This document shows, piece by piece, positions 15,570 through 56,176 of a stretch of DNA of 64,000 nt. The stretch is taken from NCBI RefSeq assembly GCF_046105845.1, contig NZ_CP151004.1; one strand, given 5' to 3'. The notes under the pieces are model-generated. The model did no database searches. It was not told the DNA's origin and saw only the letters and a list, made by a program, of their open reading frames with translations. The DNA comes from Escherichia coli (lineage in GTDB: Bacteria > Pseudomonadota > Gammaproteobacteria > Enterobacterales > Enterobacteriaceae). A program made the translations under genes and the position numbers. The stretch's first letter is position 1, and every line of letters starts with the position of its first letter.

Positions 15570-15742
15570 AAAGTTCTTTTGTGTTGCATTGCTGGCGTAA
15601 ATGTCAGCAATGCAGCATTTCCTCACGATTCTCCTTTGACGATCGCACTTTTTGCTCGTTATGATGGCGTCGCTAGCCTCAGTAAATCCTTACTCCGGCG
15701 GTGCGCAACCCGTGCGCGTGAACCACTATCTGAATGCTCATC

Positions 15743-34971: not shown

Positions 34972-36060
34972 TCACGGCAGGCGGTGGCGAGCTTGATAAT
35001 AAGACTGCCAGTGAGCTTCTTTATGTGTGGCGACGCGCTGTTCGAAGTAACGGCGCAGACGCGCGCGATCTTCTTCGTTATCTTTGACGATGGTTCCGGC
35101 AATACAGTCCACCAGGTCGGCAGGCTCCCCCGCGCGATTCGCTAAAAACCAGGCGCGGACACCCACAGCATGGGCCACGTTAACGGCTTCAGCGGTGGAC
35201 ATAATCGCTGTCAGTGTATCCATTGACGTTTTCTTTTCGCCGTTGGCACGCAGATCGCGGAACGTGCGCACCAGTAATTCCAGTACCGCGTCAGGCACTT
35301 TATGCGGAATACCGCTATGGGCCAGCAAACGCGCCGAAGCACTGGCGACCAGTTCGAGCTCCTGGGCGAAATCCATAATCGGAAAGACAGTTTCAAAATC
35401 GAAGCGACGCTTTAGCGCAGCACTCATTTCATTGACGCCGCGATCGCGGGTATTGGCAGTGGCAATAATATTAAAGCCTTCCCGCGCATAGAGCTGACTG
35501 GCTTCACCAGTGAGTTCCGGCACCGTCATTACCCTGTCAGAAAGCATACCTAACAGACAGTCTTGTACTTCCAGCGGTGTACGCGTTATCTCTTCAAAAC
35601 GGACAATTTTGCCGTCGCGCATTCCCTGGTAAAGCGGGGCTGGGACCAGCGCTTCCGTTGACGGACCATGGTTGATAAGCAGGGCGTAGTTCCAGCCGTA
35701 CTTGATTTGATCTTCGGTGGTAGATGCGCCGCCCTGGATGGTTAACCCGGCATCGCCGCTAATAGCGGTTGCCAGTAATTCAGACAGGAGAGATTTTGCG
35801 GTACCCGGTTCCCCCACCAACATCAAACCGCGCCCGGTGGCAAGAGTGACTAACATACGTTCGACAGCGGAGGGACTAATCACCACTTTACGGCTAATAT
35901 TTTGCGCGCTATCGCCAAGGATAAAAGCACGGGCCGCAGGCAAACTTAACTGCCAACCGGGCGGGCAAGGTGCGTTATCATTTTGTTTTAATTTTGCCAG
36001 TTCATCGGCGTATAACACAGCAGCAGGCGGACGCTGCAGATGATTATTCTGCGGTGACAT
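34972..36060 (-). CDS. yehL: MoxR-type AAA+ ATPase YehL
   Basis: Start at MSPQNNHLQRP gives 362 aa; Walker A GEPGTAKS. Confidence 0.9.
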   Translation of the reverse strand: MSPQNNHLQRPPAAVLYADELAKLKQNDNAPCPPGWQLSLPAARAFILGDSAQNISRKVVISPSAVERMLVTLATGRGLMLVGEPGTAKSLLSELLATAISGDAGLTIQGGASTTEDQIKYGWNYALLINHGPSTEALVPAPLYQGMRDGKIVRFEEITRTPLEVQDCLLGMLSDRVMTVPELTGEASQLYAREGFNIIATANTRDRGVNEMSAALKRRFDFETVFPIMDFAQELELVASASARLLAHSGIPHKVPDAVLELLVRTFRDLRANGEKKTSMDTLTAIMSTAEAVNVAHAVGVRAWFLANRAGEPADLVDCIAGTIVKDNEEDRARLRRYFEQRVATHKEAHWQSYYQARHRLP

Positions 36061-36171
36061 ATATTCATCCCTGAAATGTATTAATGAAATAAACGATATT
36101 TTACGCGCAATAAATGTTTTGCGCATTAGTTGTTTGAACGGAAAATATCTGGAAAGCAGATCACAGTAAAT

Positions 36172-36254
36172 AAAAAAACCTGCTGGTGAGGCAGGTTCTT
36201 TTATTTACTATTTTCAGGCCCAACACCGCAGCCTGTGCAACATCGTGTTCCAAC
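36172..36254 (-). ncRNA. Candidate OrzO-like antitoxin sRNA, copy 1
   Basis: Minus-strand TATAAT at 36266-36261 with TTGCAA -35 at 36289-36284 (17-bp spacer); ends at hairpin CCTGCCTCACCAGCAGG followed by TTTTTTT (36195-36172). Confidence 0.45.
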
Positions 36255-36283
36255 GAACGAATTATAACCATCGGTGGACCCCG

Positions 36284-36311
36284 TTGCAATTAAGATAATG
36301 AGATTTATAAT
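36284..36311 (+). promoter_or_regulatory. Sigma70 promoter of toxin mRNA, copy 1
   Basis: TTGCAA-16 bp-TATAAT; predicted start near 36318 gives a 5' UTR of about 175 nt. Confidence 0.5.
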
Positions 36312-36492
36312 CCAGACGGTTGGGACGTTGCGCCGGATCGGACCAATTTCAAGTCCTGGCTACCGGACGGGTGGTGCTGCAGGTGGTGCCCTGATCCGGA
36401 GTGCAACATCGTGGTCCAACATACGTAAACCAGTATCGACAGGCAGTGTAAGGGTAAGGTGCTGGTGTTGCGCTCCTTAATAAGGAGAGCGG

Positions 36493-36582
36493 ATGGACAC
36501 GCAGACACAAAAGTTAACCGTGCTCATTGCTGTACTGGAGCTATTAGTGGCTCTGTTACGGTTGATTGATTTGTTGAAGTAA
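36493..36582 (+). CDS. zorO: Type I toxin, ZorO/ZorP family (29 aa), copy 1
   Basis: AGGAGAG Shine-Dalgarno then MDTQTQKLTVLIAVLELLVALLRLIDLLK*; which copy is zorO versus zorP cannot be told from sequence alone. Confidence 0.75.
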   Translation: MDTQTQKLTVLIAVLELLVALLRLIDLLK

Positions 36583-36604
36583 TGGGCAAATTGAAACGCA
36601 TCTA

Positions 36605-36634
36605 AGGGGGAATACCGCTTCCCCCTTTAATAAA
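36605..36634 (+). terminator. Terminator of toxin mRNA, copy 1
   Basis: AGGGGGAA-taccgc-TTCCCCCT stem followed by TTAATAAAAT. Confidence 0.4.
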
Positions 36635-36777
36635 ATGATTACATCTTCCATTAATTCACCTGATAACTTTTTTCTTATTTATAAATTCATCGATTTTATA
36701 ATTAACGTACCATTTCGCCGGGATGTGAATATTTATGGTGGCTATTGGCGAAAAATATCTGGAAAGTAGATCGCAGA

Positions 36778-36862
36778 AAATAAAAGAACCTGCTGGTGAG
36801 GCAGGTTCTTTTATTTACTACTTTGATGTTAAGTTACTGATAGTGCAACATGGCATCTCAAC
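36778..36862 (-). ncRNA. Candidate OrzP-like antitoxin sRNA, copy 2
   Basis: Minus-strand TATAAT at 36874-36869 and TTGCAA at 36897-36892 (17-bp spacer); hairpin at 36789-36805 followed by a U-rich tract. Confidence 0.4.
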
Positions 36863-36891
36863 GAACGAATTATAACCACCGCTGGACCGTG

Positions 36892-36919
36892 TTGCAATTA
36901 AGATAATGAGATTTATAAT
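36892..36919 (+). promoter_or_regulatory. Sigma70 promoter of toxin mRNA, copy 2
   Basis: TTGCAA-16 bp-TATAAT. Confidence 0.5.
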
Positions 36920-37100
36920 CCTGACTGTTGGGAAGTTGCGCCGGATCGAACCCATTTCAAGTCCTGGCTACCGGACGGGTGGTGCCGCAGGTAGTGCTCT
37001 GATCCGGAGTGCAACATGGCGACTCAACATACGTAAATCAGTATCGACAGGCAGTGTAAGGGTAAGGTGCTGGTGTTGCGCTCCTTAATAAGGAGAGCGG

Positions 37101-37190
37101 ATGGACACGCTGACACAAAAGTTAACCGTGCTCATTGCCGTACTGGAGCTATTAGTGGCTCTGTTACGGTTGATTGATTTGTTGAAGTAA
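37101..37190 (+). CDS. zorP: Type I toxin, ZorO/ZorP family (29 aa), copy 2
   Basis: MDTLTQKLTVLIAVLELLVALLRLIDLLK*; differs from copy 1 only at codon 4 (CTG Leu versus CAG Gln). Confidence 0.75.
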   Translation: MDTLTQKLTVLIAVLELLVALLRLIDLLK

Positions 37191-37209
37191 TGGGCAAATT
37201 GAAACGCAA

Positions 37210-37563
37210 CTAAGGGGGAAAACCGCTTCCCCCTTTAATAAAGTAATATTCTATTAGTTGGTTGAATATATTCTGTAGTTTACGATTAAAAATTGCTATT
37301 ACAGTTTCAGGTGATTCACCTCGTAATTTCCGCTCATCAATACACTCATCTCTTATATAAATCAACGCATCATTTATTAGCGGGTCAGCATCTTCTCGAT
37401 CACGTTGATGAAATGTTGGACGTAGCCGGAATCGCTCCAGTCGATAGACAGAACCTGTAAATAATTCAGAGCGTTTATGGATCTCAAGCCTGAAGGAAAA
37501 CGGCTCTTCAGGTACAGGGGCCTCATAATCGTAAATAGTGATCAGCTCTTTTTGCACGATCAT
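37210..37563 (-). CDS. yehK: Uncharacterised protein YehK
   Basis: 117-aa ORF starting MIVQKELITIYDYEAP; its last 10 codons lie inside the copy-2 terminator hairpin (37213-37242). Confidence 0.7.
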   Translation of the reverse strand: MIVQKELITIYDYEAPVPEEPFSFRLEIHKRSELFTGSVYRLERFRLRPTFHQRDREDADPLINDALIYIRDECIDERKLRGESPETVIAIFNRKLQNIFNQLIEYYFIKGGSGFPP

Positions 37564-56043: not shown

Positions 56044-56176
56044 AACCAAACGACTCGGGGTGCCCTTCTGCGTGAAGGCTGAGAAATACCCGTATCACCT
56101 GATCTGGATAATGCCAGCGTAGGGAAGTCACGGACCACCAGGTCATTGCTTCTTCACGTTATGGCAGGAGCAAACT
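56044..56176 (+). ncRNA. TPP (THI-box) riboswitch in the thiM leader
   Basis: Leader contains GGGGTGCCCTTCTGCGTGAAGGCTGAGAAATACCCGTATCACCTGATCTGGATAATGCCAGCGTAGGGAA; Shine-Dalgarno GGAG at 56167-56170 lies in the expression platform. Confidence 0.85.

Follow-up and report, generated by a model that had tools for sequence, protein, structure and literature searches.

Two tandem zor-orz modules with a predicted shared −35 hexamer and covarying antitoxin–target pairing sequences at the yehL–yehK/yehI site of an Escherichia coli-like chromosome

The window (the whole stretch of 64,000 nucleotides that was analysed) contains what are almost certainly two tandem zor-orz type I toxin–antitoxin modules, located in the yehL–yehK/yehI intergenic region of an E. 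coli-like chromosome. The flanking genes, yehL, yehM, yehP and yehQ on the left and yehK and yehI on the right, were matched in annotated E. coli genomes, and the modules lie between yehI and yehL, the location from which the Z3289/Z3290 (zorO/zorP) repeat family was originally reported (PMC2887945). Each module carries a plus-strand ORF for a 29-aa hydrophobic Zor protein homologous to Z3289/Z3290, a −35 TTGCAA with a −10 TATAAT for both genes, and a minus-strand match to the Rfam family OrzO-P (RF02083), at 36172–36247 (101.3 bits) and 36782–36855 (90.2 bits), both above the gathering score of 60. Compared with the nearest complete E. coli genomes, the window showed 98.4% identity across 6.1 kb of flanking DNA and 97.6% across the locus itself, which points to an E. 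coli-like lineage without a close relative among the complete genomes. RefSeq/PGAP left the zor toxins and the orz sRNAs unnamed in the nearest genomes inspected (8/8). The features of the two modules are as follows.

36172–36254, minus strand: orz copy 1, OrzP-type antitoxin sRNA of ~83 nt, whose 5' pairing domain is followed by a small hairpin and by the terminator hairpin (36165–36209)
36235–36254, minus strand: 5' pairing domain of Orz copy 1 (GUUGGAACACGAUGUUGCAC), predicted to pair with 36401–36420 (RNAduplex, −32.7 kcal/mol)
36261–36266, minus strand: −10 TATAAT of orz copy 1 (promoter scan; invariant in 30 distinct modules)
36284–36289, no strand: palindromic TTGCAA of module 1, predicted −35 of both divergent promoters
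36306–36311, plus strand: −10 TATAAT of zor copy 1 (promoter scan; invariant in 30 distinct modules)
36319–36492, plus strand: 5' UTR of zor copy 1, 174 nt (+1 placed by homology)
36401–36420, plus strand: predicted target of Orz within the 5' UTR of zor copy 1 (+83 to +102), 73–92 nt upstream of the ATG
36493–36582, plus strand: zor copy 1 ORF, 29 aa (MDTQTQKLTVLIAVLELLVALLRLIDLLK), differing from ZorO by L4Q
36604–36627, plus strand: 3'-end hairpin (inverted repeat) of zor copy 1 mRNA, in a position that fits a transcript of ~310 nt (PMC3919570)
36782–36862, minus strand: orz copy 2, antitoxin sRNA with a pairing sequence of a third type, probably orzQ of the literature (Rfam RF02083)
36843–36862, minus strand: 5' pairing domain of Orz copy 2 (GUUGAGAUGCCAUGUUGCAC), predicted to pair with 37009–37028 (−31.9 kcal/mol)
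36869–36874, minus strand: −10 TATAAT of orz copy 2 (promoter scan)
36892–36897, no strand: palindromic TTGCAA of module 2, predicted shared −35 (promoter scan)
36914–36919, plus strand: −10 TATAAT of zor copy 2 (promoter scan)
37009–37028, plus strand: predicted target of Orz within the 5' UTR of zor copy 2 (duplex computation)
37101–37190, plus strand: zor copy 2 ORF, 29 aa (MDTLTQKLTVLIAVLELLVALLRLIDLLK), identical to ZorO of O157:H7 (L002)

The Rfam OrzO-P model begins 7 nt inside the 5' end of the sRNA (at 36247 and not at 36254 in copy 1) and, taken alone, would trim the pairing domain. With +1 at 36254, copy 1 Orz reads GUUGGAACACGAUG, with ACG at +9 to +11, and the 5' ends of the sRNAs of O157:H7 strain ECP17-46 (L002), used here as the reference for the O and P types, read GUUGGAACACGAUG... 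and GUUGGUACGAAAUG.... The published V1 region comprises the three nucleotides +9 to +11, which are GAA in OrzO and ACG in OrzP (PMC3919570). ACG and GAA take up +9 to +11 only when the G corresponding to 36254 is counted as +1. The published 5' end, mapped by primer extension, thus coincides with the end that the first-pass annotation had predicted for the minus-strand RNA, and this end also agrees with the position of the −10 box, 6 nt further upstream. The pairing sequences of copy 1 are those of OrzP/zorP and match O157:H7 exactly; the first 20 nt of its Orz are likewise identical to those of the orphan OrzP of K-12 (L008). Other Rfam matches over the sRNAs were discarded: ohsC (RF02495) reached 35.4 bits against a gathering score of 50, the terminator hairpin alone matching, and the sub-threshold matches to STnc370 and to the Thr and Trp leaders rest on the same hairpin. 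An A-run borders each Orz terminator hairpin (36165–36209 and 36775–36819) at one end and a T-run at the opposite end (AGTAAATAAAAAAACCTGC...GCAGGTTCTTTTATTTACT). The copy 1 hairpin, at 36177–36197, was also called as a plus-strand terminator by the scan, and it may act in both directions.

The zor 5' UTR of O157:H7 is 174 nt long, with the ribosome binding site at +164 to +169 (PMC5397157), and the AAGGAG at 36482–36487, together with the ATG at 36493, thus sets the +1 of zor copy 1 at 36319. Loss of the first 28 nt of the published UTR opens +73 to +102, the EAP region, which is a putative ribosome standby site, and OrzO, which pairs at the EAP region's 3' end, also blocks translation (PMC5397157). 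The EAP region corresponds to 36391–36420 in the window, and the target site at +83 to +102 is located at its 3' end, in full agreement with the published arrangement; in both modules the target lies 73–92 nt upstream of the ATG, as reported by Fozo 2010 (PMC2887945). Target accessibility computed with ViennaRNA for the full-length and the 28-nt-shortened UTR changed from 0.35 to 0.41 in copy 1 and from 0.49 to 0.23 in copy 2, with no consistent opening, a result that speaks neither for nor against the published probing data. The fourth residue of the copy 1 toxin is Gln (CAG at 36502–36504, with the A at 36503), and a Leu codon (CTG) was found at this position in 33/33 other modules examined.

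The first-pass annotation had described, in each module, a TTGCAA hexamer located 16 nt from a plus-strand TATAAT and 17 nt from a minus-strand TATAAT, and both spacers were confirmed in the two modules. A promoter scan of 36000–37350 yielded these four promoter-like sites only, each with 10/12 consensus positions. By count, four sites are not above shuffle expectation (mean 3.1, sd 1.9), so the calls are convincing because they are conserved and not because of the number of sites. The arrangement ATTATA-17-TTGCAA-16-TATAAT was found in 34/34 modules of a set chosen for the presence of TTGCAA and TATAAT. In 30 distinct modules gathered with an anchor in the ribosome-binding-site region, so that the promoter played no role in the selection, variable positions amounted to 0/18 in the hexamers versus 22/33 in the spacers (p = 1.2e-6); at least 12 spacer haplotypes were present among these modules, and the spacer lengths were always 17 and 16 nt. 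Table 3 of a 2024 mSystems survey (PMC11264685) gives TTGCAA as the −35 of zor and of orz, with identical percentages for both genes (99.4%; 99.7% in orz-only loci), and these identical values fit a single shared hexamer. K-12 MG1655 (L008, 1501–1711), the published orz-only locus, lacks target site and toxin. It retains OrzP, the common −35, the two −10 boxes and some 30 nt of the zor UTR, and the bidirectional promoter is thus kept even without the toxin gene.

A further observation of the first-pass annotation was that the predicted 5' end of the copy 1 sRNA is complementary to a segment of the toxin 5' UTR, with a single mismatch after a perfect run of 13 nt. This description is accurate: 36235–36254 (GTGCAACATCGTGTTCCAAC) and 36401–36420 (GTGCAACATCGTGGTCCAAC) agree at 19/20 positions, with a 13-nt run followed by the mismatch 36248/36414. 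On the DNA the two halves are direct repeats, so an RNA transcribed leftward from 36254 is complementary to the rightward transcript at 36401–36420, and the copy 1 duplex comprises 19 Watson–Crick pairs and one mismatch at sRNA +7. The corresponding segments of copy 2, 36843–36862 (GTGCAACATGGCATCTCAAC) and 37009–37028 (GTGCAACATGGCGACTCAAC), had likewise been said to match each other and to differ from copy 1, and they do so at 18/20 positions, with two adjacent DNA differences and not one; the RNA duplex has 18 Watson–Crick pairs, one G-U pair and one mismatch. The best direct 20-mer match in 60 module shuffles was 13–15/20. Cognate pairs have the pattern 6(1)13, and 19/20 positions pair in the cognate duplexes. 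The nucleotide at sRNA +7 is mismatched with its own target (36248/36414 and 36856/37022) in the P, third and L007 types and is paired only in the O type. Such a mismatch, recurring within the duplex, may serve to adjust repression or cleavage by RNase III. When the whole sRNA was run against the whole UTR, RNAduplex also paired the Orz terminator stem with a G-rich stretch of the UTR (36364–36390, GGTGGTGCTGCAGGTGGTGC), a pairing which we rejected as probably artefactual because RNAduplex ignores the strong intramolecular hairpin.

The two modules (36139–36635 and 36749–37243) differ at 49/497 aligned columns. Each pairing half has 5/20 differences, four of which are the same substitution in the same register on both halves, giving the compensatory double changes 36244/36410 (C>G), 36246/36412 (T>C), 36249/36415 (T>C) and 36250/36416 (C>T), read from copy 1 to copy 2. 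The halves are enriched in differences relative to the rest of the 300-nt repeat (10/40 vs 15/260; Fisher p = 4e-4), and the enrichment is also found over the whole module (p = 3e-3). The earlier claim that the two halves are the most variable stretches of the repeat thus holds inside the gapless 300-nt repeat. However, over the whole module (36139–36635) the middle of the Orz sRNA (36215–36234 vs 36823–36842) exceeds them, with 15/20 columns differing, a 2-nt indel included, and the pairing halves, at 5/20 each, rank second. This sRNA middle, between the pairing domain and the terminator, varies at 16/20 columns across the 30 modules; despite this divergence it keeps a small hairpin with the conserved GUUGC of the Rfam model.

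RNA duplex prediction (RNAduplex) gave −32.7 and −31.9 kcal/mol for the cognate sRNA–target pairs versus −20.0 and −20.1 kcal/mol for the non-cognate pairs. Aligned in register, the cognate partners disagree at a single position, always sRNA +7, and the non-cognate partners at 3–4, with a longest run of 9. Over six distinct natural sRNA/target combinations (29 loci), 94% of the pairing cells were paired in register, versus 28–41% when one partner was slid by 1–3 columns. Five pairs (sRNA +5, +6, +9, +10 and +11) change on both sides across the six pair types, and the observed covariation score was reached by 0/500 shuffles. In a cross-type matrix, the P, O and third (Q) sRNAs paired well only with their own target (−29.6 to −30.8 vs −14.0 to −21.2 kcal/mol). 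The target sequence of the L007-type variant is that of Q, and the L007-type sRNA pairs equally well with it. The survey of 2024 quotes an experimentally derived repression threshold of 15 continuous or 17 discontinuous paired nucleotides and suggested that variation in the pairing region may prevent crosstalk (PMC11264685). Judged by sequence-based prediction, cognate pairs pass this threshold and non-cognate pairs fall below it, both cognate pairs qualifying only by the discontinuous rule (17 paired nt, one internal mismatch) on account of the +7 mismatch.

Genetic analysis of the O/P pair has shown that OrzO's first 18 nt are enough for repression, also when grafted onto OhsC or IstR-1, and that zorO is not repressed by OrzP (PMC3919570). 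In the same study, swapping V1 switched specificity in both directions, compensatory mutations in zorO restored repression, and repression was abolished by the three central mismatches of OrzP on zorO (15/18 paired) and likewise by a single mismatch at V1 position 1. The first-pass annotation had proposed that each antitoxin is specific for the mRNA of its own toxin; this proposal matches the published zor-orz biology and is supported by the covariation and the duplex energies. The experiments cover the O/P pair; in this strain, discrimination between the P and third types is predicted from the pairing rules and energies.

In the mechanism that we propose, two sigma-70 promoters per module would fire divergently at a distance of about 65 bp, with a single palindromic TTGCAA between them acting as the −35. 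Leftward transcription would produce the Orz sRNA of ~80 nt, and rightward transcription the zor mRNA, with its 174-nt 5' UTR and the ORF of a 29-aa membrane toxin. The first 18–20 nt of Orz would then pair with the zor UTR at +83 to +102, the 3' end of a region exposed by 5' processing, and this pairing, at a putative ribosome standby site, would block translation and trigger RNase III-dependent cleavage. Because the centre of the predicted duplex (sRNA +5 to +11) differs between the paralogues, with both partners changing together, each Orz would be expected to recognise only the zor mRNA of its own module. Experiments on the O157:H7 orthologues have established the transcription starts, the toxicity, repression by the sRNA 5' end and its dependence on RNase III, the discrimination between O and P, and compensatory mutants. 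Both RNAs of the O157:H7 orthologues are expressed and their starts were mapped (PMC2887945), and with the EDL933 orthologues ZorO is toxic when overproduced and OrzO rescues, in a manner that needs RNase III and not Hfq (PMC3919570).

A direct repeat on the DNA could also come from duplication, and the 20-nt repeat of each module might then be the relic of an internal duplication, without RNA–RNA function. We regard this as practically negligible, since the repeats covary across types, their 19/20 identity is far beyond the 13–15 obtained by shuffling, and the published genetics refutes it with the direct experimental proof provided by chimeric sRNAs and compensatory mutations. Given that the two segments pair as RNAs, their central variation might still be neutral drift, with the invariant flanks (GUUG... 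and ...AUGUUGCAC) sufficient for each Orz to repress both zor mRNAs. All types have in common nine contiguous 3' pairs and four 5' pairs, the predicted non-cognate duplexes still reach about −20 kcal/mol, and only 2 mismatches are predicted for the pairing of the natural L007-type sRNA with the P-type target. However, neutral drift does not predict compensatory changes on both partners in five pairs, three central mismatches or one at V1 position 1 abolish repression (PMC3919570), and the non-cognate pairs here, with 3–4 mismatches, are under the threshold of 15 continuous or 17 discontinuous nucleotides. We therefore consider repression of both mRNAs by each Orz very unlikely and retain the interpretation that each Orz recognises its own target.

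The role of the hexamer can be questioned on other grounds. TTGCAA might not be a shared −35, being used by a single promoter or kept mainly, as a palindrome, as the site of a dimeric regulator. Palindromic hexamers are typical half-operators, both −10 boxes are perfect TATAAT sequences that could tolerate a weak −35, and the scan count in the region is not above shuffle expectation; moreover, a mutational test of the zor-orz TTGCAA was not found in the accessible literature, and searching the literature for divergent promoters that share a palindromic −35 hexamer gave nothing relevant. Against this, the spacers are of optimal length (16 and 17 nt) and invariant in length despite strongly diverged sequences, conservation ends exactly at the six bases, both −10 boxes agree with mapped transcription starts, and the authors of the system give the same hexamer as the −35 of both genes (PMC11264685). 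We consider such a different role unlikely, and the use of one TTGCAA by both promoters, predicted and conserved, is the reading that we prefer.

A single palindromic −35 may also make the binding of RNA polymerase to the toxin and antitoxin promoters mutually exclusive, although we put this forward only tentatively and think it somewhat doubtful; no test of mutual exclusion of the zor/orz promoters was found in the accessible literature. If true, each initiation at one module would give rise to either the Orz or the zor RNA, never both, and exclusive promoter binding would build anticorrelated, noisy toxin and antitoxin transcription into the locus. Promoter exclusion could then explain why the hexamer and the spacer lengths are invariant despite diverging spacers, also in orz-only strains like K-12.

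Copy 2 (GUUGAGAUGCCAUG...) belongs to neither the O nor the P type. The same type was found in PCN033, CFSAN061770, GPEC60-33-648 and one metagenome contig, and it probably corresponds to the zorQ/orzQ type of the 2024 survey (PMC11264685). A 61-nt segment specific to this third type (36815–36875) was present in 858/5426 complete E. coli genomes (16%), 778 of them with at least 99% identity. An exact-pattern scan of species-representative genomes returned three other Escherichia lineages only, not enough for taxonomic conclusions. The metagenome scan yielded 18 contigs, seven of which ended too near the match for use. Two metagenome contigs carry hybrid modules, one combining an OrzP sRNA with a third-type target and the other a third-type sRNA with a P-type target. 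These modules are located on the minus strand at about 6984, near the contig end (L021), and on the minus strand at about 955 of a 1360-nt contig (L025). Given these positions near a contig end or on a short contig, they are likely to result from assembly collapse of the tandem repeat, but they may be real products of unequal crossover with a non-cognate antitoxin. On another metagenome contig (OWIP01028780.1; L013), unrelated upstream DNA is joined to the zor UTR from about +47 on, a part that contains the P-type target and the ribosome binding site; this contig segment has neither orz nor the zor promoter and recalls the partial zor-UTR matches reported on plasmids (PMC11264685).

The closest known systems are zorO-orzO and zorP-orzP of O157:H7 EDL933 (Fozo 2010, Wen 2014, Wen 2017), which occupy the same yehL–yehK/yehI site and have the same tandem duplication and divergent sRNA. 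The −35 and −10 hexamers, the spacers, the 29-aa toxin, the geometry of the 174-nt UTR and the pairing to +83 to +102 are all shared. The two loci differ in the second copy, which is of the third pairing type (GUUGAGAUGCCAUG...) here and not of the O type (V1 GAA), and in the copy 1 toxin, which has Q4 where ZorO has L and T3 where ZorP has S. The zorQ/orzQ type, defined in a survey of more than 2000 E. coli (PMC11264685), is, like copy 2, a third, common type distinct from O and P; however, the common published ZorQ protein is the variant A20S, whereas copy 2 encodes the ZorO sequence. Among unrelated systems, tisB-istR-1 and shoB-ohsC also have a divergent sRNA whose 5' end pairs over about 18–21 nt with a long toxin 5' UTR, and in tisB-istR-1 the competitor of the sRNA is a ribosome standby site uncovered by 5' processing. 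The tisB gene is under LexA control. The sequences and toxins of these two systems are unrelated to those of zor-orz, and both loci are single copy, so that paralogue discrimination does not arise. The ibs-sib and ldr-rdl families have, like zor-orz, several paralogous copies per genome, and, according to PMC3919570, the antitoxin tells its own toxin mRNA by a few variable nucleotides. Unlike Orz, their antitoxins are true antisense RNAs overlapping the toxin gene, and the same paper assigns two recognition domains to Sib and one to Orz.

The zor-orz locus, its promoters, the pairing site and the paralogue-specific recognition were already published between 2010 and 2024, and the first-pass annotation re-derived them correctly from the sequence. 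The analysis thus matters little as discovery, and it is useful as annotation, given that RefSeq/PGAP leaves these genes unnamed in the nearest genomes. What is particular to this strain is limited to the combination of the P type with the third type, in place of the studied O and P combination, the L4Q change in the copy 1 toxin, and the +7 mismatch that recurs in the P, third and L007 types.

To the right of the modules, a 117-aa ORF on the minus strand (37210–37563) occupies the yehK position; in PCN033, the nearest genome, the annotation treats its counterpart as a pseudogene interrupted by an internal stop. Among the inspected E. coli genomes, what is annotated here varies in length or status, being an intact yehK, a hypothetical protein or a pseudogene. 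Elsewhere in the window, Rfam matches above the gathering score were obtained for a Peptidase-S11 RNA (15658–15738, plus strand, 72.8 bits) and for a TPP riboswitch (56046–56142, plus strand, 71.2 bits).
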